A model generated the notes under the pieces. That model had not been told where the DNA came from, did no database searches, and saw nothing but the letters and a program-made list of their open reading frames with translations. DNA of 64,000 bases, taken from Armatimonadota bacterium. GTDB lineage: Bacteria > Armatimonadota > HRBIN16. This document shows positions 1,808 to 59,623 of this stretch, piece after piece; the first letter of the stretch is position 1, and every line of letters begins with the position of its first letter. A program made the translations under genes and the position numbers. The stretch spans positions 3,168,001 to 3,232,000 of the forward strand of contig OY781964.1 of NCBI GenBank assembly GCA_963677485.1, written 5' to 3'.

Positions 1808-3775
1808 ATGAGAAGATCGATCTTGGCTTTGCTTCTGGGTGCCATGCTGGCATCCTCTGCAACGCAAGCCGCCGTACGCGATATTTACCCAGATACCTGG
1901 GTAGCGACCGATGGGGTTGGGCGCAGCATGCCTTCTGTGAAGCAAGTCGGCCCCGTGAAGAAAGACCAGACCCGCGTGGTGGGCATCTTTTACATCACCT
2001 GGCACAGCGACAGTAATCATCAAAAACAAACCTACACCGCTGATGTGGCCTCCATCTACCGAAAGGACCCAAATGCACGGCTGGACGGCAAGAACCCCTT
2101 GTGGAAAGACGGCAGTTACCACTGGGGCGAGCCCGAAACGGGTTATTTCCTGAGCAAGGACGAATATGTGATCCGCAAAGATATGTCTATGCTGGCCGAT
2201 GCCGGTGTGGATGTGCTGATCATGGACGTGACAAATGCGGTGCGCTACTGGGATGAGTGGTCAGTGGTGTTCCCCGTGATGCAGAAAATGAAGGCCGAAG
2301 GCAACAAAGTGCCCAAGTTCTGCTTCTGGGCGTTCAACGGCCCCTGCATCACCGTGGTTCAAGACCTGTATGACAAAATCTACAAAGAAAACAAGTATAA
2401 AGACCTGTGGTTCTACTGGCAGGGCAAACCGCTGATTTTATGGAACGGCAGCCCCTCCGTGGATGCCAATGGAGCGGGGATTCAGAACCCGAACCTCTAC
2501 TATGATGCCAAGGCGAAGACAGACAAGAACCACCCGCACTACGGCGATCCTAAGTATACCACGGAGTTCCTCACCGACTACCCGGATGAGATCAAAAACT
2601 TCTTCACCTCACGCACGATGTGGTGGGGATACCACATGTGGGCAGGCAAGCGCTTTGTAGGCACCGAGGACAACTGGAGCTTCGGCTACCAGTTGCACGA
2701 CCCTGCAGTGCTGAACATGAACCCCAATGACCTGGTGTCCACACACAAGGGCAAGAAGGAAGAGGCGGCGGTCACCCCCTCGCAGCACCCTATGAGCATG
2801 GTAGGTAAAACCTGGAGCCGCGAAGCGGGTGAGCCCGAATTGAATGAGTACGATGTGCCCGGAAGAGCACTGGTGCCCTGGCTGGGCAAGACCGTGAAGA
2901 ACCCGATGGACTACGGCATCTACTTCCAGCAGCGATGGGATGAGGCGATAGCCGCCAACCCGCAGTTTATGTACATCAACGACTGGAACGAGTGGACCGC
3001 CGGAAAGTATCCCACTACCGGTGATTTCATGCGCCGCAAGAGCGACTACTTCTTTGTGGACCAGTATAACCCCGAATTCAACCGCTGTGTGCAGCCCATG
3101 AAGGGCGGTTACACCGACAACTACTACATGCAGATGGCGCAGAACATCCGCAAGTATAAGGGCATCCGGCCCATCCCCACCAACCGCGGCATCCATCCTG
3201 TGAGTATCAATGGCCGCTTCAACGACTGGAGCACCGTGCGTGTGGAGTATCGTGACACCATCGGCGATGTCTTCCACCGCAACTACCCAGGATACGGTGA
3301 GCCGGACTACACCAACGATTCTGGCCGTAACGACATCACCACCAGCAAAGTGGCGATGGATGAGAAGAACGTGTATTTCTATGCACAGACCGCTCAGCCG
3401 TTGACCGCCTGCACCGACCCCAACTGGATGCTGCTGATGATCGACGCCGACCAGAACCCCGATACTGGCTGGTATGGGTATGATTACATCATCAACAAGC
3501 AGGTTCTGAGCACCGGGAAGACGACGCTCAGTAAATACGTCCCCGGCAGCGACCAGCCTTGGCAGGTGGTTTCTGAGCTCAGCTACCGAGCCGAGTGGGA
3601 CAAGCTGGAGATCGCGGTACCCCGCGCTCTGCTTGGCCTGAAGGGCGATTCTGCCAGCTTGGACTTCAAGTGGGCCGACAACCCGGCCGACCTGAAGGAC
3701 CCCATTTCGCTCTGCCTCAACGGCGACACCGCCCCCAACCGGCGGTTCGCCTACCGGTATGTCTGGGCGAAGTAG
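1808..3775 (+). CDS. Secreted GH99/GH71-like glycoside hydrolase (paralogue 1 of 5)
   Basis: Signal peptide; AGGAG RBS; VGIFYITWH, WGEPExGY, LADAGVD and NDWNEW motifs of GH99/71-like TIM barrels; C-terminal beta-sandwich. Confidence 0.65.
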   Translation: MRRSILALLLGAMLASSATQAAVRDIYPDTWVATDGVGRSMPSVKQVGPVKKDQTRVVGIFYITWHSDSNHQKQTYTADVASIYRKDPNARLDGKNPLWKDGSYHWGEPETGYFLSKDEYVIRKDMSMLADAGVDVLIMDVTNAVRYWDEWSVVFPVMQKMKAEGNKVPKFCFWAFNGPCITVVQDLYDKIYKENKYKDLWFYWQGKPLILWNGSPSVDANGAGIQNPNLYYDAKAKTDKNHPHYGDPKYTTEFLTDYPDEIKNFFTSRTMWWGYHMWAGKRFVGTEDNWSFGYQLHDPAVLNMNPNDLVSTHKGKKEEAAVTPSQHPMSMVGKTWSREAGEPELNEYDVPGRALVPWLGKTVKNPMDYGIYFQQRWDEAIAANPQFMYINDWNEWTAGKYPTTGDFMRRKSDYFFVDQYNPEFNRCVQPMKGGYTDNYYMQMAQNIRKYKGIRPIPTNRGIHPVSINGRFNDWSTVRVEYRDTIGDVFHRNYPGYGEPDYTNDSGRNDITTSKVAMDEKNVYFYAQTAQPLTACTDPNWMLLMIDADQNPDTGWYGYDYIINKQVLSTGKTTLSKYVPGSDQPWQVVSELSYRAEWDKLEIAVPRALLGLKGDSASLDFKWADNPADLKDPISLCLNGDTAPNRRFAYRYVWAK

Positions 3776-3789
3776 GGAAAACTGCCAAA

Positions 3790-3823
3790 CAGTTGTGTCA
3801 CTTGCGGGCAAGTGACACAACTG
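3790..3823. terminator. Perfect 16-bp-arm hairpin after stop codon
   Basis: cagttgtgtcacttgc-gg-gcaagtgacacaactg, 14 nt after TAG; no U-tract. Confidence 0.5.
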
Positions 3824-3855
3824 CCGTGACTGCTGACAGGAAGGACACGTTTGAT

Positions 3856-4447
3856 ATGAGGCCAGTGCGGATATTTATCAGCAGTGTGCAGAAGGAATTT
3901 GCACAGGAGCGGATTACCCTGCGGAACTATCTGCGTGATGACCCGCTGATCGCAGACAAGTCACAGGTCAAGTCACAGGACAAGTCACAGGACAAGTCAC
4001 AGGACAAGTCACAGGACAAGTCACAGGACAAGTCACGGATCAAGTCACAGGTCAAGTCACAGGACAAGTCACAGGACAAGTCACAGGACAAGTCACAGGA
4101 CAAGTCACAGGACAAGTCACGGATCAAGTCACAGGTGAAGTCACAGGTCAAGTCACAGGACAAGTCACAGGACAAGTCACGGATCAAGTCACAGGTGAAG
4201 TCACAGGTGAAGTCACAGGTGAAGTCACTAAGCTGGTAATAGTCTACCATACTCCAATGACTCGGAAAAAATATCCAATTAGCACTTGCATTAAAAGGGG
4301 AAGCCAATTTCAGAGACTTGTACTTAACTCCTGCACTGGAAGCGGGATATATTGAGATGACCATTCCCAATAAGCCCAACAGTCGTTTGCAGAGATATCG
4401 GTTAACAGATAAAGGAATCGTGTTGCGGAAGAGGCTAACCAATCAAT
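3856..4447 (+). pseudogene. Remnant of a DUF4062-type gene with (QVTG)n linker and Fic-like C-terminal HTH
   Basis: MRPVRIFISSVQKEFAQER (DUF4062-like start) is joined out of frame to QVTG repeats. A frameshift at the A6 run (about 4266-4271) precedes NIQLALALKGEANFRDLYLTPALEAGYIEMTIPNKPNSRLQRYRLTDKG. Confidence 0.65.
3958..4229 (+). repeat. 12-bp tandem repeat (aagtcacaggac and variants), 22 full units plus a partial
   Basis: Directly visible; variant units end caggtc, caggac, cggatc or caggtg; the first 7-unit block is duplicated. Confidence 0.97.
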
Positions 4448-49798: not shown

Positions 49799-51953
49799 TG
49801 AGGGTTCTTTTTAACGCAATGGCGCAAGGATGCAAAGGGGTTGTTGGTATTCAACCGTGTGTAGGGGCAACCCCCTGTGGTTGCCCTGTTCTATGGTGGG
49901 GCATCATGTGCGCTGCCCACGGGATGTGTGAACCGCGGATGAACGCGGATAAACGCGGATGGGGAGGGGTTCTGTCCGCTGTCGCCTCATCGGTCGGATT
50001 CGACCAATCCGTCCGATGAATCCTCACCAAAACAAGCGACGCCCCCATGGTAGCTATGCCCCCTAAGGGCGTCCGCTGGATACCTCTATGCTTGCCTGTT
50101 TGGGCGCCTTTAAGTTAAAAGCCCTTCTGGTCACAAAACGTCACAGACCATACCATCAGCTACAACCAGTAATTTTGGTAACAGTCCTTTATACCGATAT
50201 AACATGAATCACAAACTGCAGGTATACTGATGGTTGATATGTTTTTGTTGCCCTGGTGTATCTAGATAAAGGTAAAGGAGCCACTATCGTGTATTGGAAG
50301 ACCAACCGTGCTAATTGGATTTTTGTCCTAAGCTTCGTATTTGCGCTGATGCAGCTTATCACGTGCCAAATCGCGTTTGCACAAGGCGGCACTATCGACG
50401 GCTGGGGTGATAGGCGCATAGCCTCGGGTGATCTCACTGGCTTCAAAGCAGTATCGGCAGGCTATGCTCATACCGTTGGTCTGAAACGCGACGGCTCGGT
50501 GGTCTGCTGGGGATTGAACTCATCTAGCAAATGCAGTATACCTGCACCTAACCAGGACTTCACCGCCATAGATGCTGGAAACTACTATTCCGTCGGTTTG
50601 AAGCGCGACGGCTCGGTGGTTTGTTGGGGTGATAACTCATATGGTCAGTGCAGTGTGCCCGAACCCAACCAGGATTTCATCGCTATCGCAGCAGGAGATC
50701 AGCATACAGTCGGTTTGAAACGTGACGGTTCCGTAGTCTGTTGGGGCTTTAACAGCTACAGCCAGTGCAATGTGCCTGCTCCTAACCTGGATTTTATAGC
50801 CATCGCGGCAGGAGACTGCTATTCCGTCGGTTTGAAGCGCGACGGCTCGGTGGTTTGTTGGGGTGCTAACACATACAGTCAGTGTAGTGTGCCCGCACCC
50901 AACCAGGGGTTCACAGCCATCGCAGCAGGCGGGCAGCACTCTGTCGGCTTAAAGAGTGATGGTTCGGTGGTCTGCTGGGGTTACCAAGATTACCGCCAGT
51001 GCAATGTACCCGCACCCAACCAGGATTTTACTGCCATCGCTGCAGGCTGGCATCATACTGTCGGTATTAAGCGTGACGGTTCCGTGGTTTGCTGGGGTGA
51101 TAATGACGAAAATCAATGTAATGTGCCTGCACCCAACCAGGATTTCGCCGCCATCGAAGCAGGAGGGCGGCATACCGTCGGCTTAAAGCGCGATGGTTCT
51201 GTAGTTTGCTGGGGTGATAATGACGATTTCCAATGTAATGTGCCCGCACCCAACCGAGACTTCATCGCCATGGTCACGGGTGCAAAACATACCGTCGGAC
51301 TGAAGATTGATGGTTCGGTGGTTGGCTGGGGTGACAACTGGTATGGTGAGTGCGATGTGCCTGCACCCAACCGAGACTTCATCGCCATCTCTGCAGGTAA
51401 TAGTTACACCGTCGGCTTGAAGAGTGACGGTTCAGTGGTCTGCTGGTATGATAACTCATATGGTAAGTGCAGTGTGCCCGAACCCAACCAGGATTTCATC
51501 GCTATCGCAGCAGGAGATCAGCATACAGTCGGTTTGAAACGTGACGGTTCCGTAGTCTGCTGGGGCAGTAATTCTGAGGGTCAATGCAATGTACCCGCAC
51601 CTAACACGGATTTCGTCGCCATCGCGGCAGGATACAACTACAGCGTTGGGTTGAAGCGCAACGGATCAGTCGTCTGTTGGGGTTATAACTACAACGGCCA
51701 GTGTGATGTGCCCTCGCCTAACATGGATTTCACCTCCATCGCGGCTGGTCGGTTCCATACCGTAGGCCTGAAGAGCAACGGTTCGGTGGTCTGCTGGGGG
51801 CCTTCCTATCTCAGTCAATGCAAGGTGCCTGAGCCCAACCAGGATTTTACCGCAATTACGGCGGGTATTTGGCATACCGTCGGACTGAAGAGGGATGGCT
51901 CGTTGGTTAGTTGGGGTGATAACGAATGGGGCCAGTGCGATGTACCTTCACCT

Positions 51954-53609
51954 AAGGCGGCTTAGCCGCAACCAAAAAAGGAATGATTGCATTCGCCACG
52001 TAATATACATTCAAACACCCTTTCGTGAGGTTGCCCAGAATGACATCACTTCAAGAACGCTATGCAAAGCAGATAGCTGGGGTATATTCATGCTTCGACC
52101 GCATAGTTATCACCGGTACAATCCCAGGCTGGTGTCATAGCGACGGAATGGGCATCTATCTTCATCAACGCAACATCAGGCTATTTGACTTTCCTAAGGA
52201 ATTTGCCGAACCTCTACGAGATGAGATCAAAGCCAATGCGGAACGCCTTGCCGTTACCAACAGCATTGAAATTGAGTATATACGCCGTGCCTCTTCATTT
52301 CGAAAAGAAGACCGCATCAAAGAGATCATTAGTAGTCGAGGGTGTCACCCCGGTCTCGTCCACATATTCTCAGTGTTGGAAAAATGTCCTGCATACACCC
52401 CGTGGCACGACAAGATTACCCACAAAACCCGGCTGAATATCAAGGAGACCAAGTGTCTTCATTACTACTTCTATTTCATCGATGCAGAGTTTGGACTGTG
52501 CTATCTACGAGTTCCGACCTGGGTGCCCTTCCGTCTGCAATTCTATTGTAATGGACACAATTATCTCGCGCATTGCCTTCAATCCGAGGGAGTAGTTTTC
52601 ACTCCACTGGACAACGCCTTTGTAAAAATCGACGACTTTAGCTGTGCTCAGAGGCTGGCAGACGCTTTTCCTGCTGATAAGCTGCACCATGCGCTGGATG
52701 CATTTGCCAGAATGTATTGCCCCGTGATACGGCTTGCTGACAATTCATATCATTGGTCGCTAATGCAGGTGGAATATGCTACAGACATCGTGTTCAAACG
52801 CGCCGAAGACCTCAAAGCCATCTACGATAATCTAGTCAAAACAGCGATACATACGGTAACGCCAGAGTCTATCGCGATGTTTCTTGGTAAGAAACTTGAT
52901 GGGCGAACACTCGCTGAGATCGGCACTGACTACAAGTTCGATCGCCGCATACAAGGCACGCGCATCAAACACTACATGGGATGGGCTTCTATCAAAATGT
53001 ATGACAAGCAAGGGATAATCTTGCGTATCGAGACGACTGTGAATGACGTCTCTGAATTTAAACACTACCGTGAGGTAGAACATCATGATGGGACGACTGA
53101 GATTAAATACGCCCCTATGCAAAAGACCATCTACAGCCTTCCTCCATTGAGGGAACTGTTATTATCTGCAAACAACAGATATCTTGACTTTCTTTCCGCC
53201 CTTGATGACAACAGCGATGGTGAACATCAGATCATCAAAATCGCGACCTCGACCACCCGTGATCATCGCTCGTATCGAGGATTCAACCTTTTCCTCAAGA
53301 AGGATTTGGAATGTCTCATTGCACTTGCTCGCGGAGAGGGATGCATCAGCGGGATCACAAACCGTATGCTTCAAAAAGCCTTACCGCAGATGTCCAGCTC
53401 TCAGATATCATACTTCATCAAGCGATGCCGAGTATTCCGGCTCGTTAAAAAATGCGGTAAACGCTACAAATACTACCTCACTGCACTTGGCAAGCGTATC
53501 ATCATGGCAGCACTTGCTATTCGCCAGATCGTTGTGCCTAACGCTTTGTGTGGTGCGTAATATCAGAATATTCTATACACCGTGTTCAAAATATGGTTGG
53601 TAAGATACT
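51954..53609 (+). mobile_element. Unclassified insertion sequence, copy 1 (1656 bp; CTAA at both junctions; no TIR)
   Basis: Matches 56649-58304 at offset 4695; interrupts a gene precisely. Boundaries are drawn at CT^AA and are ambiguous within the 4-nt core. Confidence 0.95.
52040..53560 (+). CDS. Putative transposase: Rep_trans/MOBT-like nickase with C-terminal winged helix
   Basis: Sole long ORF of the element; QVEYATD, SIKMYDK, ILRIETT; wHTH ITNRML...SSSQISY.IKR....LVKK....YKYYLT.LG. Alternative GTG start at 52025. Confidence 0.75.
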   Translation: MTSLQERYAKQIAGVYSCFDRIVITGTIPGWCHSDGMGIYLHQRNIRLFDFPKEFAEPLRDEIKANAERLAVTNSIEIEYIRRASSFRKEDRIKEIISSRGCHPGLVHIFSVLEKCPAYTPWHDKITHKTRLNIKETKCLHYYFYFIDAEFGLCYLRVPTWVPFRLQFYCNGHNYLAHCLQSEGVVFTPLDNAFVKIDDFSCAQRLADAFPADKLHHALDAFARMYCPVIRLADNSYHWSLMQVEYATDIVFKRAEDLKAIYDNLVKTAIHTVTPESIAMFLGKKLDGRTLAEIGTDYKFDRRIQGTRIKHYMGWASIKMYDKQGIILRIETTVNDVSEFKHYREVEHHDGTTEIKYAPMQKTIYSLPPLRELLLSANNRYLDFLSALDDNSDGEHQIIKIATSTTRDHRSYRGFNLFLKKDLECLIALARGEGCISGITNRMLQKALPQMSSSQISYFIKRCRVFRLVKKCGKRYKYYLTALGKRIIMAALAIRQIVVPNALCGA

Positions 53610-54260
53610 AACAAGGGTTTCACCGCCATCTCCGCATCGGAATATCATACAGTTGGAATCCGCGGTGTTCAGTCAATCGACGGAAAGCTGCAACTAGGGC
53701 AATTCTTGGGCAGTATTACTGCGCGGCAGCTCACAGCTTCTATCAGCAATACAGCTGACTCCAGCAGTACTCAATGCCTCAGTATAAACCCTCAGGCTAA
53801 CGGTGAATACTCCCTCTCCACCTACCTTTTACCACCATATAGTCTTCGTGTCAGCAGCCCGCACTTCCTCACTGCGAAGGCGACCAATGTGGGCATCGGG
53901 CAACGCGTCAACATCATTCTCACTAACGGCGACGTGGATGGTGACGGCCAAATCAATCTGTTTGATATGGTGGCTCTAGATTCTAAATTCGGCTCCTCAG
54001 ATACCATTGCCGACCTTGATGGTGATGGTATAGTCAACCTGTTTGACTATGTAGTCATCGATCAGAACTTCGGTGCGCAGGGTGATTGATCACAAGCACT
54101 ATCTGATGCAAGCGAAGAGAAACCCGCTAGGGGTGACTCTATGACGGAGTGTCATATCACCCTCCAGCTTAGGAGTGAGGCCTGCTCTCCCTTGCCGTTG
54201 TTTAGTATTGGAGAGCTCATCATATATAGGTACTAAGTGCGTTTGCCGGACGCTCTACGC

Positions 54261-55439
54261 TCACGGCTGATTGACCACGCCCGTGAAGAGTATCTCGCCG
54301 GTGGGATCGTGCCGTATGAGAAACACGAACGGCCGGTTGAACTTGATTTTCGGTGGATTTGGAGAGATGCCCAACATCATGCCAATCCCGGAAGCCGCGG
54401 AAGCGACCGTGCCTCGCTCATTCACTTCAACCATGCATTTTTGTTTCGCTTCGCCAATCCAGAGGTCTTGAGACACTCTTGCCAGCATGCCGCTAAAATC
54501 GGCATGTGCCCCAAACGGCAACGGCATGCCCATTTTGGTAAGCGGTGGGATCAACTTGGTCTCTACATCCATCTTGAACCTGGGTAACGAGAGCTCCGCA
54601 TGACTGGTATCAAGGTTAGCCACCATATCGTGAAGTGCCTTGCCAGTCAGGATGCCCAAGAGCTTCTGGGGAGAGGAATTCGGAGCCGGCAATATAAGAT
54701 ACATCGCTAGCGTCTGCTGAAGTTGCATGATTTTTCGAAAGCCTTCGCTGCTAGTCGTGCTTCCTGGTTTGATTGCTGAGGCGAGGCGGCTAAGGTTGTA
54801 TGGCAGTCGGACCATGTCATACTTACTGGTCTGGGAAAACCCCATGTCCTCATCTTTACACATGTAGGTAGCAGTCGACCGCTTACCCTCGCTGCCATAC
54901 CAGACCGCTTTGACGTTTGCTTTCGGGTTGAACGGGTCTAGCCACTCGCCATGGAACAGCACCGTGTTGATGATGATCATCGCTATCTGTGAATCGATGC
55001 TGTCATACATCCGATTGATACGTCCATTAGTGTTTTTCGTCACCCACTGGTTAATCAAGTTCACAGTCTGGCGATCATGTAGATCAACCGTGTTCACCGG
55101 TGCGTGATACACGCTGTTCACTTTACGGGCATATCCTGGATCAAGACGATAGAGTTGGTGCAGCCACAATGAGTTTGCGACCAGCATTTCCGCTGGTGTC
55201 AGAGCACCACTGATTTGCCTGATAGTCTTCACGTTGCTTTGGTTCACTTGTTCGATAGAGCTGCTGCCGAAACCCAGCACCTTCGTCATCTGGCGGAGGG
55301 TTTCACCCCGGGCCCCGTTCAGCGTCATGCTGAGCGCGATGCGGGCGCTGTAGGGCGAGAGGCACAGGTTCTGACCGTCTTGGTTGCACTGCTGAGTGAG
55401 CCTCAGCGCGAAGTCGGACGATGCGTAATTAGGCTGCAT
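54261..55439 (-). CDS. Serpin (serine protease inhibitor), intact
   Basis: N.CLSPYS, GARGET, IN.WV...TNGRI, FHGEW..PF, LPRFK, hinge VNERGTVASAAS, FNRPFVFLI, ILFTG.V..P. Confidence 0.95.
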   Translation of the reverse strand: MQPNYASSDFALRLTQQCNQDGQNLCLSPYSARIALSMTLNGARGETLRQMTKVLGFGSSSIEQVNQSNVKTIRQISGALTPAEMLVANSLWLHQLYRLDPGYARKVNSVYHAPVNTVDLHDRQTVNLINQWVTKNTNGRINRMYDSIDSQIAMIIINTVLFHGEWLDPFNPKANVKAVWYGSEGKRSTATYMCKDEDMGFSQTSKYDMVRLPYNLSRLASAIKPGSTTSSEGFRKIMQLQQTLAMYLILPAPNSSPQKLLGILTGKALHDMVANLDTSHAELSLPRFKMDVETKLIPPLTKMGMPLPFGAHADFSGMLARVSQDLWIGEAKQKCMVEVNERGTVASAASGIGMMLGISPNPPKIKFNRPFVFLIRHDPTGEILFTGVVNQP

Positions 55440-56648
55440 ATTGAAACCCCTCTACTTTTCTATTAAAGCGTCCAGGCGCCCTACGCTTGCGGTTGGTTGA
55501 CCACGCCTGTGAAGAGAATCTCGCCGGTGGGATCGTGCCGTATGAGAAACACGAACGGCCGGTTGAACTCCAACTTCGGTGGATCTGGATTGATTCCCGC
55601 TATTGTCATCAGGCCGGAAGCCGCGGACGCGACCGTGCCTCGTTCATTTACTCCAAGCACGCATTTCTGTTTGGCTTGATCGATTTCGATCGGGCTGGCC
55701 ATTTTGGTAAACATGCCGCTAAAATCGGCATGCTTCTCAAACGGCAACGGCATACCCATTTTCGACAGCGGGGCGATAAGGTCAGTCTCCACTTCCATCT
55801 TGAACCTGGGCACTGACAGCACTACATGACCAATATTCAGGCCGTCGATCATCTGGTCTAACGAAGGACCGGTTAAGCTGTTCAGGAGCTTCTGGGGCGA
55901 GGATCCTGAAGCGGGCAATATCAAATACATCGCTAGCGTCCTGTTCAGCTGCATTGCTTGATGTAATGTTTCACCAGTTATACCGCCGGGTTTGATGGTA
56001 ACTGCGAGGCGGCTCAGGTTGTATGGAAGCCTCACCATGGCGTGCGTTTTGGCCTGTGAAAACTCCATATCCTTGTCTTTTTTCATAAAGTTGATGTTTT
56101 GCCGTTTGCCTTTAAAACCATGCCAGGTCGCCTTGACATTTTTCTTGGGATCAAATGGATCAATCCATCCTCCCTGGAACAGCACCGTGTTAAGGATGAT
56201 CAACATCGTCTGTGGGTCAAGGAGGTCATACATCCGTGTGACCCTTCCGTTGGTGCTTTTCGCCACCTACTGGTTGATCGTATTTACAGTACGGCTGTCA
56301 CTCATGCTGACCAAGTTGACAGGGGCATGGTACACGCTGTCGACTCTGCGGGCATAACCGGGATCCAAGCGATAGCGTTGTTCCAGCCACAACGCGTTTG
56401 CCATCAACAGCTCCTGTGGTGTCAGATGGTCACTAATCTGTTTCATGAGCTTCGTATTGCTCTGGTTGATCTGATCGATGGAGCTGCCGCCGAAACCCAG
56501 CACAATCGTCATTTGGCGGAGGGTTTCACCCCGGGCCCCGTTCAGCACCATGCTGAGCGCGATGCGTGCGCTGTAGGGCGAGAGGCACAGGTTCTTGCCG
56601 GTTTCGTAGCATTGCTGCGTGAGCCGTAGGGCGAAATCGGAACTACCT

Positions 56649-58304
56649 AAGGCGGCTTAGCCGCAACCAAAAAAGGAATGATTGCATTCGCCACGTAATA
56701 TACATTCAAACACCCTTTCGTGAGGTTGCCCAGAATGACATCACTTCAAGAACGCTATGCAAAGCAGATAGCTGGGGTATATTCATGCTTCGACCGCATA
56801 GTTATCACCGGTACAATCCCAGGCTGGTGTCATAGCGACGGAATGGGCATCTATCTTCATCAACGCAACATCAGGCTATTTGACTTTCCTAAGGAATTTG
56901 CCGAACCTCTACGAGATGAGATCAAAGCCAATGCGGAACGCCTTGCCGTTACCAACAGCATTGAAATTGAGTATATACGCCGTGCCTCTTCATTTCGAAA
57001 AGAAGACCGCATCAAAGAGATCATTAGTAGTCGAGGGTGTCACCCCGGTCTCGTCCACATATTCTCAGTGTTGGAAAAATGTCCTGCATACACCCCGTGG
57101 CACGACAAGATTACCCACAAAACCCGGCTGAATATCAAGGAGACCAAGTGTCTTCATTACTACTTCTATTTCATCGATGCAGAGTTTGGACTGTGCTATC
57201 TACGAGTTCCGACCTGGGTGCCCTTCCGTCTGCAATTCTATTGTAATGGACACAATTATCTCGCGCATTGCCTTCAATCCGAGGGAGTAGTTTTCACTCC
57301 ACTGGACAACGCCTTTGTAAAAATCGACGACTTTAGCTGTGCTCAGAGGCTGGCAGACGCTTTTCCTGCTGATAAGCTGCACCATGCGCTGGATGCATTT
57401 GCCAGAATGTATTGCCCCGTGATACGGCTTGCTGACAATTCATATCATTGGTCGCTAATGCAGGTGGAATATGCTACAGACATCGTGTTCAAACGCGCCG
57501 AAGACCTCAAAGCCATCTACGATAATCTAGTCAAAACAGCGATACATACGGTAACGCCAGAGTCTATCGCGATGTTTCTTGGTAAGAAACTTGATGGGCG
57601 AACACTCGCTGAGATCGGCACTGACTACAAGTTCGATCGCCGCATACAAGGCACGCGCATCAAACACTACATGGGATGGGCTTCTATCAAAATGTATGAC
57701 AAGCAAGGGATAATCTTGCGTATCGAGACGACTGTGAATGACGTCTCTGAATTTAAACACTACCGTGAGGTAGAACATCATGATGGGACGACTGAGATTA
57801 AATACGCCCCTATGCAAAAGACCATCTACAGCCTTCCTCCATTGAGGGAACTGTTATTATCTGCAAACAACAGATATCTTGACTTTCTTTCCGCCCTTGA
57901 TGACAACAGCGATGGTGAACATCAGATCATCAAAATCGCGACCTCGACCACCCGTGATCATCGCTCGTATCGAGGATTCAACCTTTTCCTCAAGAAGGAT
58001 TTGGAATGTCTCATTGCACTTGCTCGCGGAGAGGGATGCATCAGCGGGATCACAAACCGTATGCTTCAAAAAGCCTTACCGCAGATGTCCAGCTCTCAGA
58101 TATCATACTTCATCAAGCGATGCCGAGTATTCCGGCTCGTTAAAAAATGCGGTAAACGCTACAAATACTACCTCACTGCACTTGGCAAGCGTATCATCAT
58201 GGCAGCACTTGCTATTCGCCAGATCGTTGTGCCTAACGCTTTGTGTGGTGCGTAATATCAGAATATTCTATACACCGTGTTCAAAATATGGTTGGTAAGA
58301 TACT
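56649..58304 (+). mobile_element. Unclassified insertion sequence, copy 2
   Basis: All six-frame ORF translations are identical to copy 1; same ends; empty site tACCTAACg. Confidence 0.95.
56735..58255 (+). CDS. Putative transposase: Rep_trans/MOBT-like nickase with winged helix (identical to 52040-53560)
   Basis: Identical translation. Confidence 0.75.
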   Translation: MTSLQERYAKQIAGVYSCFDRIVITGTIPGWCHSDGMGIYLHQRNIRLFDFPKEFAEPLRDEIKANAERLAVTNSIEIEYIRRASSFRKEDRIKEIISSRGCHPGLVHIFSVLEKCPAYTPWHDKITHKTRLNIKETKCLHYYFYFIDAEFGLCYLRVPTWVPFRLQFYCNGHNYLAHCLQSEGVVFTPLDNAFVKIDDFSCAQRLADAFPADKLHHALDAFARMYCPVIRLADNSYHWSLMQVEYATDIVFKRAEDLKAIYDNLVKTAIHTVTPESIAMFLGKKLDGRTLAEIGTDYKFDRRIQGTRIKHYMGWASIKMYDKQGIILRIETTVNDVSEFKHYREVEHHDGTTEIKYAPMQKTIYSLPPLRELLLSANNRYLDFLSALDDNSDGEHQIIKIATSTTRDHRSYRGFNLFLKKDLECLIALARGEGCISGITNRMLQKALPQMSSSQISYFIKRCRVFRLVKKCGKRYKYYLTALGKRIIMAALAIRQIVVPNALCGA

Positions 58305-58432
58305 AACGCATTAGCCATTGTTCTTGATAACCTCCTGTGGGTAGTCGTAAAAAACGAGCTTTGCTATTATTGACGCCGGAGAGGGTGGGAATGTTTCCTG
58401 TTTACCATATTCCTATCTGAGATATATGGCCA

Positions 58433-59485
58433 CTACGGAATATACTGCGCGTTCTTCAGGCCGTGTTGGTCAATGTTGGTCATAATCTTCGCATCGTCGT
58501 TGGAAATGGCGTACGAATTATCGACACCCTTGACGGTCGCAGCTACCAAGTCCGAGCTGCCCACACGGTAGACATCAAATCCGGCCATGTAGGTGAGATT
58601 GTATAGGTATTTATGTATGATAAAGTCATCAACTATTGATACTTCGTTGAACATCGCCCCGATTTCTCCGTAACGAGGTCGAATCACCGATATCTTTTTG
58701 ACAGAATTACCCTCGTACCGGTACACAGTGCTGCCATTGATCAATATCTGCCCACTGGCCACAAAACTCCGAGCGTCCCGTTTCATACCCAAACTCCCGG
58801 TATCGTGCCTTTTCCATGTACCAAGATCGATACGCGTGATCGAGCCATCTCCAGAAACCAGCAATAAACTGTTGCCAGAGAACCAGCCATACGAATCCTG
58901 AAATTCCTTGTAGAGGTGCCTATGTTTGACATCAAACTTATACACCGTCGTGACGGTCCTACCATCGCCATATCGCCCGTTGATGCATATCCAGTTGCCG
59001 GAAATGTGATTGTCCACAGGCCAAGGCAGGAGCTCTACAGCACTTGGCGACAGGGTGTATATCTTGTGGTTTTTAATGGCGATGGAGGTAGACGGACCAT
59101 CGACGTCCTTCCATATGCCAGACTTCATCTTTTTGTCGGTGACAATAAACTCTTTGTTGCTGTGTCTGATGTTCACCCATATTTCATTCTTCGCACGGAT
59201 GGCGGTTTGCTGCCGTGTATCAGTTTTCAACGCTTTACTAAATGTGTAACTCTTGCGGGACTGTGGCCAGTATATGTAGTTATTCTCTACACCGGCCACC
59301 AGTATCGCGACCTCGTTGTCTGGCCAGGTTTGCGCAAGCCGCTTGCCGGTGAAGTAATACCACCAGGGCAGCGCACCACTCAGTGTGTAGATGATGAGCG
59401 AGACCGGGAGGGCAACTAACACAAGTGCGATGGTGATAACTACCCTTTGCTTCAGGGTGAGCTTCTTCCTGGGTGCATTATTCAT
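58433..59485 (-). CDS. Hypothetical membrane-anchored beta-rich protein
   Basis: 350-aa ORF; basic N-terminus then a TM helix; AT-richer than the host. Confidence 0.65.
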   Translation of the reverse strand: MNNAPRKKLTLKQRVVITIALVLVALPVSLIIYTLSGALPWWYYFTGKRLAQTWPDNEVAILVAGVENNYIYWPQSRKSYTFSKALKTDTRQQTAIRAKNEIWVNIRHSNKEFIVTDKKMKSGIWKDVDGPSTSIAIKNHKIYTLSPSAVELLPWPVDNHISGNWICINGRYGDGRTVTTVYKFDVKHRHLYKEFQDSYGWFSGNSLLLVSGDGSITRIDLGTWKRHDTGSLGMKRDARSFVASGQILINGSTVYRYEGNSVKKISVIRPRYGEIGAMFNEVSIVDDFIIHKYLYNLTYMAGFDVYRVGSSDLVAATVKGVDNSYAISNDDAKIMTNIDQHGLKNAQYIP

Positions 59486-59623
59486 ATGATTTGCCTTCCG
59501 TTAACAGCCGTGTATTGCTTCATCGCATTGGCTGCATTATGAACCGATTATTGTATTTTGTCAACAAGCCCGACCGGCACGTAAGGTCCAGGGTTTTCCC
59601 GTCCTGGGTGCAGGGACCGCACC

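Follow-up and report, generated by a model that had tools for sequence, protein, structure and literature searches.

An abundant insertion sequence family outside known transposase models, with a putative Rep_trans-like nick-and-join enzyme, present in 22 near-identical copies in an Armatimonadota genome

Two identical copies of an insertion sequence (IS) are located in a 64,000-nucleotide stretch of the genome of an Armatimonadota bacterium (GenBank assembly GCA_963677485.1, contig OY781964.1, positions 3,168,001 to 3,232,000 of the forward strand), which is referred to here as the window. An initial annotation, made from the letters of the window alone, had described two identical elements with a spacing of 4695 bp and a net insertion of 1656 bp per copy. 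This description was confirmed, as positions 51950-53612 and 56645-58307 are 100% identical across 1663 bp. One copy splits a gene for an RCC1-repeat protein with a dockerin and the other splits a serpin gene, and each copy carries a single open reading frame (ORF) for a protein of 506 amino acids. The features of the locus are as follows, with the apostrophe in CT'AA marking the point at which the elements are drawn.

50256 to 54089, plus strand: RCC1-repeat/dockerin gene, split by IS copy 1 (Pfam RCC1_2, 1.3e-118; Dockerin_1, 5.3e-06)
51951 to 51953, plus strand: left target half-site CCT, in the flank of copy 1
51954 to 53609, plus strand: IS copy 1, 1656 bp, drawn at CT'AA, starting with AAGG and ending with GATACT
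51957 to 51969, plus strand: left-end hairpin (GCGGC, loop TTA, GCCGC), 3 nt past the junction
51970 to 51981, plus strand: left-end box AACCAAA..AGG
52040 to 53560, plus strand: the single ORF (P0002) for the 506-residue protein, a putative transposase
52766 to 52786, plus strand: codons Q243 to D249 (QVEYATD), proposed Rep_trans motif I
52994 to 53032, plus strand: codons K319 to E331 (KMYDK...LRIE), proposed catalytic-tyrosine strand and RxE strand
53312 to 53524, plus strand: C-terminal winged helix-turn-helix, approximate limits
53561 to 53609, plus strand: right end
53610 to 53611, plus strand: right target half-site AA, in the flank of copy 1
55481 to 58318, minus strand: serpin gene (Pfam Serpin), split in codon 5 by copy 2, with an empty site in the related genome G141
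56649 to 58304, plus strand: IS copy 2, identical to copy 1 (hairpin 56652-56664, ORF 56735-58255)

The two copies of the window are part of a larger set, since the genome, which consists of one 5.22-Mb contig, contains 22 full-length copies. Sixteen of these are identical across the 1660 bp compared, three differ solely at the last base, which is a flank base, two have one substitution each, and the remaining one has 99.2% identity and lacks 1 bp in the left non-coding part. The ORF is open in all 22 copies. No solo ends were found in the genome: the 22-mer left motif and the 15-mer right motif are each present 21 times and once more in a variant form. The region 54000-59500 was examined in Logan contigs of four isolate-type runs, and in two of these, X5 and X6, the element had about 23-24 times the depth of its flanks (170.1 versus 7.3 and 263.8 versus 10.9, respectively). 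The element was not found in two genomes of the same genus and 15 others of the same family (0 of 17), which suggests a recent acquisition followed by a burst. In G141, a genome of the same genus, the serpin site is uninterrupted (...ggaactaC-CTAA-Cgcattagcc...) and holds a single CTAA. For three other copies, which are followed by T instead of A (L017-L019), the matches in G141 and G093 stop short of the insertion points. The observed pattern cannot be explained by chance, because the 1.66-kb copies are identical, the depth is raised 23-24 fold in X5 and X6 and the unoccupied site in G141 has only one CTAA. The Armatimonadota genome thus appears to have undergone a recent burst of 22 near-identical copies, which has inactivated at least one RCC1/dockerin gene and one serpin gene.

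Removal of both elements had initially been thought to restore the two genes. With copy 1 excised in silico, the open frame indeed grows from 575 to 731 amino acids and reaches the dockerin-coding part, and the 117-bp periodicity of the RCC1-repeat gene becomes 1773 = 117 + 1656 over this copy. In the serpin gene, excision of copy 2 extends the frame from 129 to 146 amino acids, after which a separate in-frame TAG is reached at positions 56267-56269.

The 506-residue protein belongs to a very large family. A word-indexed search returned 7998 of 8000 scored candidates at E ≤ 0.001, and an exhaustive search returned at least 6547 representatives of 50%-identity clusters at the same threshold, 659 of them at E ≤ 1e-30. 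The best 120 relatives are 57-100% identical and 469-532 amino acids long, and most of them are located on contigs of 1.6-2.5 kb, which fits the manner in which repeats assemble. Among genomes taken one per species of the Genome Taxonomy Database (GTDB), at least 573 relatives were confirmed (573 of 588 pattern matches), and 80 of these were kept as loci for taxonomy and end analysis. They belong to Acidobacteriota, Nitrospirota, Planctomycetota, Chloroflexota, Pseudomonadota, Desulfobacterota-type groups, Bacillota, Bacteroidota, Armatimonadota, Spirochaetota, Patescibacteria and others, and one is archaeal (Ca. Bathycorpusculum). Across many phyla, at 50-77% identity, the ORF travels with the same ends. 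Among 2.9 million viral contigs, queried with alignment A1, only two relatives were found, both partial. A separate search for longer, fused forms of the protein found none.

As the initial annotation had stated, no known transposase class is recognisable in this protein. No Pfam family matched it at E ≤ 1, no Pfam or NCBIfam transposase model matched, and searches of NCBIfam and of PDB sequences gave no meaningful match apart from the C-terminal winged helix, the only recognisable domain (PDB MarR regulator, E 0.012, profile positions 434-501). The winged-helix model HVO_A0261_N matched in 28 of the 67 members of alignment A2. Accordingly, the protein may be divided into an N-terminal part, a putative catalytic region and the winged helix at the C-terminus. 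The expectation that the winged helix would lead to a regulator label was also borne out: relatives are publicly named hypothetical protein or MarR family regulator, and a plasmid copy is named ArsR family regulator, because of this domain. In PHROGs only winged-helix regulators were matched and no model names the protein as a transposase, while the ESM Atlas returned the protein's own family alone. PF13814 (Replic_Relax) gave a faint match in two of the 67 members (best E 0.064), probably through its helix-turn-helix part. Taken together, the copies and their relatives almost certainly represent an active and very widespread IS family that lies outside known transposase models.

The insertions are precise, and the target site is short. 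The 7-mer ACCTAAC that had been proposed as the target turned out to be a coincidence of the two window copies, since the 22 sites share only C-CTA-W, with W being A in 18 and T in 4 cases and with G at neither neighbouring position in any copy (0 of 22 each). On the left, the flank ends in C and is followed by CTAAGG in 22 of 22 copies. On the right, the end GATACTA (GATATTA in one copy) is followed by A (18) or T (4). The genome holds 9118 CCTAW sites, both strands counted. In six other multi-copy genomes, the left side reads flank-CCT'AAC-CCGGC nnn GCCGG-AACCAAAC AGG and the right side reads ...TAAG R N ACT'AA-flank. Among 52 distinct left ends, the flank is CCT in 42, CCC in 7 and other in 3, the CCC-flanked sequences being a subgroup with a longer left end, and the element starts with AAC in 48. 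Among 61 distinct right ends, the final bases are ACT in 58, and the flank following ACT is AA in 54, AC in 3, AG in 2, AT in 1 and GA in 1. Two copies in one Acidobacteriaceae genome have ACT'TA on the right and CCT'AA on the left, so that CT is all that the two junctions share in every case, and the exchange would then take place at one of three bonds around or within CT. The initial annotation had proposed a shared CTAA core and an alignment of the flanks of copies and relatives as its test. A fixed core at both junctions did emerge from this alignment, but it is CTA in the present genome and CT in the relatives, not CTAA. In short, the putative nick sequence (C/A)CT'AA is found at the target and at the left and right junctions, with CT alone strictly shared. 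The two sides of the insertions differ beyond CT, which does not correspond to a target duplication of fixed length.

Variant copies of the element were seen outside the window near positions 4,184,647 and 824,516 of the genome. The copy near 4.18 Mb has TT instead of CT at its right junction, with GATATTA in place of GATACTA (GATATTAA), and the other is the 99.2%-identical copy with the 1-bp deletion. Such variants could reflect a mismatch in the exchanged core, or else ordinary mutation.

The two ends of the element are asymmetric. None of 13 listed inverted-repeat pairs joins them, in agreement with the initial view that terminal inverted repeats are absent. The non-coding ends are short, with 86 nt before and 49 nt after the ORF. 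The left end is marked by the hairpin, with a predicted folding energy of -5.9 kcal/mol as single-stranded DNA, and by the adjoining box, of which columns 31-36 are invariant in alignment A3. Hairpin and AACCA box were found by script in 72 of the 80 loci; one of these matches (L041) was false, and the left end of L024 was found by another pattern. The left-end alignment comprised the 52 distinct sequences mentioned above, including that of the window, after duplicates and L041 had been dropped. In this set, 93.5% of the cells of the 5-bp stem are paired. Thirteen sequences carry double changes at two of the five pairs (C-G to G-C and C-G to U-A), with no one-sided changes there. None of 500 shuffles scored as high, and slid controls were at most 38% paired. 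The GC-rich hairpin of the left end therefore covaries across phyla. At the right end, a pattern was matched in 76 of the 80 loci; L030, L063 and L081 were judged false and dropped, which left the 61 distinct right ends, including that of the window, in alignment A4. The last 9 nt of copy 1, TAAGATACT (53601-53609), fit the consensus TAAGRNACT. RNAalifold found no consensus pairs among the 61 right ends, many of which have a short palindrome by eye, and the right end of the window folds no better than shuffles. In one locus, L100 (Ca. Brocadia pituitae), the left-end hairpin region, about 100-200 nt upstream of the ORF, is repeated in reverse complement about 100 nt further on; this inverted left-end duplicate was seen in L100 alone.

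Exact junctions between a right end and a left end, ACT'AAC, were found at 40 loci of metagenome contigs (L124-L163). Most of these consist of ORF-less units of 64-260 bp with a left and a right end, arranged as head-to-tail dimers or trimers and bounded by cct'...'aa. Examples are 83 bp x2, 142 bp x2, 168 bp x2, 87 bp x3 and 211 bp x2-3, and miniature-bearing loci include L126 (2564-2730), L158 (949-1210) and L125. In other loci a full copy is directly followed by a further unit, for example a miniature in L162 and another full copy in L135. The same ACT'AAC junction was found in two of the 80 genome loci (L024 and L068). The junction is always the exact ACT'AAC, as expected if the right junction itself is a substrate. 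A far more distant relative, with about 22% protein identity, is present in two copies of 1818 bp on a Mycobacterium riyadhense plasmid. Identity between these copies sets in at CTAC, with a long GC hairpin (-17.9 kcal/mol, z -3.3) immediately behind it, and stops at GGCTAG. CTA at both junctions and a hairpin at the left end have thus been kept across a deep divergence. Of two further sets of copies, those of Rhodococcus lie within plasmid terminal repeats and those of Burkholderia share one context, and neither set yields element ends. Precise insertion, fixed junctions, asymmetric ends, the covarying left hairpin, the miniatures and the head-to-tail tandems can all be read directly from the DNA compared here; from them, and from the protein, we infer the enzyme class, a single-stranded intermediate, a dimer and the CT bond that would be cut.

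The conservation of the protein was examined in 70 sequences, namely the 67 members of alignment A2 and three relatives from plasmids, with identities as low as about 22%. Twelve columns are invariant (D20, R21, G105, G152, P163, N171, N192, E245, K319, Y321, R329 and E331), and Y143, Y145 and K323 (69 of 70 each) and E114 (68 of 70) are nearly so. Q243 is present in 57 and D249 in 66 of the 70 members. The residues E245, Y321, K323, R329 and E331, which had been singled out from the window sequence before any relatives were collected, are therefore all invariant or almost invariant. No column of conserved His, Ser or Cys exceeds 58 of 70 members, which argues against HUH and serine chemistry and leaves tyrosine and acidic residues. 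No internal repeat was found in the protein. The order of the conserved motifs and their i, i+2 spacing (QxExAxD, KxYxK, RxE) match those of the Rep_trans motifs RxDxAxD, YxK and RxE. The latter had been named in the initial annotation, and an alignment of nine Rep_trans ORFs (A5) indeed has R-x-D-x-A-x-D, Y and R-x-E as its invariants. D20 or E114 are candidates for Rep_trans motif N', and no counterpart of motif II was picked out. Among the 8922 six-frame ORFs of the genome, the pattern [DE]xAxD..Y[DN]K..RxE is found solely in the 22 ORFs of the IS, and it is also present in six of the nine Rep_trans ORFs and in 48 of the 70 family members. It should be noted that this pattern was relaxed after the protein had been seen, so that it gauges rarity and does not provide an unbiased test.

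In the Rep_trans signature published in PMC5714925, a conserved D is joined by RxD, T/SxY/ExG, YxKxxE and W/LxRxE; the metal triad is D, D, E, and the tyrosine lies on a beta strand. A conserved CT'AA nick site of MOBT/Rep_trans enzymes, which in ICEBs1 lies in the loop of a GC-rich hairpin, is stated in PMC9371924, in line with the initial annotation. With CT'AA at the target and at both junctions, a GC hairpin and the residue signature, the best reading of the present data is that the IS encodes a Rep_trans-like tyrosine nick-and-join enzyme. We lean, by a little more than an even judgement, towards such an enzyme acting on a single strand at CT'AA. There may be an even chance that a Rep_trans/MOBT-type nuclease, with a TBP-like fold, a tyrosine and an acidic triad, has been domesticated for transposition, which would add a further mechanistic class with a very large IS family.

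According to the mechanism that we propose, the protein would recognise the left-end hairpin and the right-end box, and it would cut and rejoin one DNA strand at (C/A)CT'AA, with the invariant Tyr321 as nucleophile and with E245, E331 and either D20 or E114 holding the metal. The top strand would be nicked at the left junction (flank CCT'AA element), whereby the protein would become covalently joined to the 5' end of the element strand. This strand would then be peeled off, or displaced by replication, up to the right junction (ACT'AA flank), where the other subunit of a dimer would carry out a second transesterification and close a single-stranded circle with the junction ACT-AAC, the donor being resealed or left. 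The reverse reaction at a CCT'AA target would insert the element without a true duplication, with CT (often CTA or CTAA) at both junctions, and miniature derivatives would be mobilised in trans. Such a cycle would explain the absence of inverted ends and of a duplication, the hairpin, the miniatures and the frequent exact tandems.

The relationship of the protein to Rep_trans was assessed by profile comparisons, the outcome of which depended on the alignments used. With the nine Rep_trans ORFs, hhalign gave probabilities of 6.9-14.7%, and in a block-shuffle control of this set the real score (34.5) exceeded the decoy maximum (30.0, n=60). With larger sets of 20 and 31 Rep_trans sequences, the probabilities were 37.4% and 36.1% (E about 4e-4, reversed decoys scoring 15), residues 211-347 were placed onto Rep_trans motifs I-IV in a consistent register, and K319-E331 fell, as with the nine ORFs, on the Rep_trans segment RIYDK...WIRxE. 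When 8931 sequences were ranked by a hidden Markov model (HMM) of the core (residues 233-350), 15 of the 31 Rep_trans ORFs came within the first 459 and five, all close kin, within the first 62. Several findings weigh against a Rep_trans-like enzyme or the proposed cycle. PF02486 matched none of the 67 members at E ≤ 0.1 and had no candidate in the whole genome; an HMM of the nine Rep_trans sequences did not list the IS ORF at E ≤ 100 among the 8922 genome ORFs; and hhalign of A2 against A5 gave 4% in a different register. When insert columns were removed from real and shuffled templates alike, the real score (26.0) lay inside the block-shuffled decoys (median 22.0, maximum 32.8, n=110), and in the reverse HMM test only two of the 70 family members were in the top 100. 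The strict Rep_trans pattern with RxD is present in 0 of 70 members. At the DNA level, the junction lies 3 nt 5' of the hairpin stem (1 nt between AA and stem) and not in its loop, where the dso and oriT are nicked. Relative to an origin at about 2.14 Mb and a terminus at about 4.74 Mb, as judged from cumulative skew, 15 of the 22 ORFs are head-on to the fork; this is not significant, and the replication-strand distribution thus lends no support to a lagging-strand single-stranded target. Lastly, neither a circle junction nor an empty site was found in the Logan contigs of the four runs, but contigs drop rare forms, so that this result says nothing either way. Altogether, the profile evidence for homology with Rep_trans is suggestive at most, being weak and unstable and no proof. 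The initial assignment to a Rep_trans-type enzyme hence stands as far as the residue signature is concerned, but not as a demonstrated homology, there being no PF02486 match and profile probabilities of 4-37%.

These considerations leave room for the view that the same single-strand tyrosine nick-and-join reaction at CT'AA is carried out by an enzyme unrelated to Rep_trans, which would be convergent or have a wholly new fold. All DNA-level evidence fits this view equally well, the links in sequence to Rep_trans are below accepted thresholds and alignment-dependent, the distance from D20 to E331 spans 311 residues compared to the 201 positions of the Pfam model, and the N-terminal 232 residues have no profile match. 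We nevertheless regard an unrelated fold as rather unlikely, although it is the foremost alternative, since the published nick tetranucleotide agrees with that of Rep_trans, as do the order of the motifs and their i, i+2 spacing, and since both larger Rep_trans sets gave hhalign probabilities of 36-37% in a consistent register. More remote from a Rep_trans-like enzyme would be a double-strand site-specific recombinase similar to those of IS110 or IS607, which would exchange strands of a CCTAA target with those of a circular donor junction across a CT core of 2 bp. The missing inverted ends, the fixed target, the short shared core, the exact right-end/left-end junctions and the lack of a replication-strand bias are what such a recombinase would leave behind. 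It is made improbable by the absence of any match to DEDD, Ser- or Tyr-recombinase models and of a conserved Ser column, by the covarying end hairpin, which is what single-strand enzymes read, and by the lack of a long non-coding region for a guide RNA (only 86 nt before and 49 nt after the ORF).

An atypical DDE transposase with an RNase-H fold, producing a CT(A) duplication of 2-3 bp as in some IS5 and IS630 groups, would account for the three invariant acidic residues D20, E245 and E331 and for CTA on both sides of 22 of 22 copies. Yet there are neither terminal inverted repeats nor a match to a DDE model, and the ends are asymmetric, a covarying hairpin being seen at the left end alone. 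Moreover, the left CTAA is constant while the right side varies (CTAT in 4 of 22 copies; ACT'TA, AC, AG and GA in relatives), so that at most CT could be a duplication. This explanation is thus very unlikely. Least credible of all is the idea that the ORF is a cargo DNA-binding regulator on an element moved by an enzyme encoded elsewhere. Its attraction lies in the winged helix as the sole recognisable domain and in the ORF-less miniatures with the same ends. However, the ORF is the element's only gene and is intact in 22 of 22 copies, it accompanies the same ends over many phyla at 50-77% identity, and its invariant Tyr, acidic, Lys and Arg residues lie outside the winged helix. In addition, the element is present in 0 of 17 genomes of the same family, and with the closest relatives lacking the element no resident helper is evident.

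The preferred Rep_trans-like reading invites comparison with known mobile elements. IS200/IS605 elements, which encode an HUH Y1 TnpA and move by peel-and-paste, lack inverted ends and duplications, insert 3' of a fixed short sequence, have end hairpins and give rise to miniatures. The present IS resembles them in its insertion 3' of a fixed sequence of 4-5 nt without duplication or inverted ends, in its hairpin and in its miniatures. By contrast, its protein is about three times longer, without an HUH motif, a conserved His pair or a Y1_Tnp Pfam match, and there is no strong lagging-strand bias. IS200/IS605 elements have hairpins at both ends; in the present IS the left hairpin covaries, and the right ends gave no consensus structure, though many have a short palindrome by eye. 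The right junction of the IS mimics the target, for which reason head-to-tail tandems are common. IS91/ISCR elements (HUH Y2, rolling-circle) have asymmetric ends, a fixed tetranucleotide target and no duplication, and tandem or read-through products are expected of them. The IS shares the asymmetric ends, the fixed target, the absence of duplication and the tandems with this group, but its protein has no HUH/Y2 motifs or corresponding Pfam match, and its target is another one. Like IS110, which uses a DEDD enzyme guided by a bridge RNA and a 2-bp core, the IS lacks inverted ends and has a fixed target and a short core, here CT. It differs in the lack of a DEDD_Tnp_IS110 (PF01548) or Transposase_20 (PF02371) match, in its very short non-coding ends and in a target that is constant family-wide and not programmable. 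The likeness to Rep_trans (pT181 RepC/RepD, PF02486) and MOBT enzymes (ICEBs1 NicK, ICESt3 RelSt3) concerns CT'AA beside or within a GC-rich hairpin, the acidic triad and tyrosine arranged as [R/Q]x[D/E]xAxD, YxK and RxE in the same order with beta-strand-like spacing, and a helix-turn-helix domain attached to the nuclease. In contrast to these enzymes, the IS protein is longer, with 230 unmatched N-terminal residues and no Pfam match, and its helix-turn-helix is C-terminal instead of N-terminal. The nick, which lies in the hairpin loop there, would be 3 nt upstream of the hairpin in the IS. Finally, Rep_trans/MOBT enzymes start the replication or transfer of plasmids, phages and integrative and conjugative elements (ICEs), whereas the IS protein would move a 1.66-kb chromosomal element.

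Transposases are grouped into the chemical classes DDE, DEDD, HUH, Ser, Tyr and Cas1-like. The present IS family is absent from Pfam, NCBIfam and the full-text literature searched, ISfinder and subscription journals being outside that search. Within the same bounds, no paper was found that joins Rep_trans, MOBT or a TBP-like fold with an insertion sequence, and the left-end motif string occurred in no paper of the full-text search, the scope of which excluded supplementary files. In the passages considered of the review PMC5714925, the roles given for Rep_trans are limited to the replication of plasmids and of phages and to conjugative transfer, and the discussion of a 2026 paper (PMC13107129) gives the same bacterial roles. 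The significance of the family lies in its abundance, with at least 6547 representatives at 50% identity outside all profile models tried. If it is generally unrecognised, the IS content and the extent of gene disruption would be under-counted in many environmental genomes, and its proteins would be mislabelled as regulators. If the enzyme is Rep_trans-like, the initiators of rolling-circle plasmids and phages and the relaxases of ICEs would be linked to transposition, in parallel to the HUH story of Rep, relaxase and IS91/IS200. It would then also be a compact enzyme, one whose target is a fixed sequence of 5 nt and whose cis sites are simple, namely a 13-nt hairpin and a 9-nt right box.

Some minor observations relate to the interrupted genes and their surroundings. 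The TAG at 56267-56269 (minus strand) in the serpin gene comes after codon 94 of the frame 56551-56267. A tandem serpin paralogue at 54261-55439 is intact, and blocks of the two serpin genes share 72-88% identity. The flank of another copy (L018, positions 3377-3950) contains repeats of 60-130 bp that match at least 80 places in G141 and represent a separate short dispersed repeat family. The RCC1-repeat gene contains at least 13 tandem units of 117 bp (39 amino acids; 50469-51938 and 53608-53629) and a type I dockerin at its end. CCTAA is found at the position equivalent to the insertion in two of 13 units (50548 and 50782), while in the other 11 the sequence at this position is not CCTAA and mostly begins with CCAAC.

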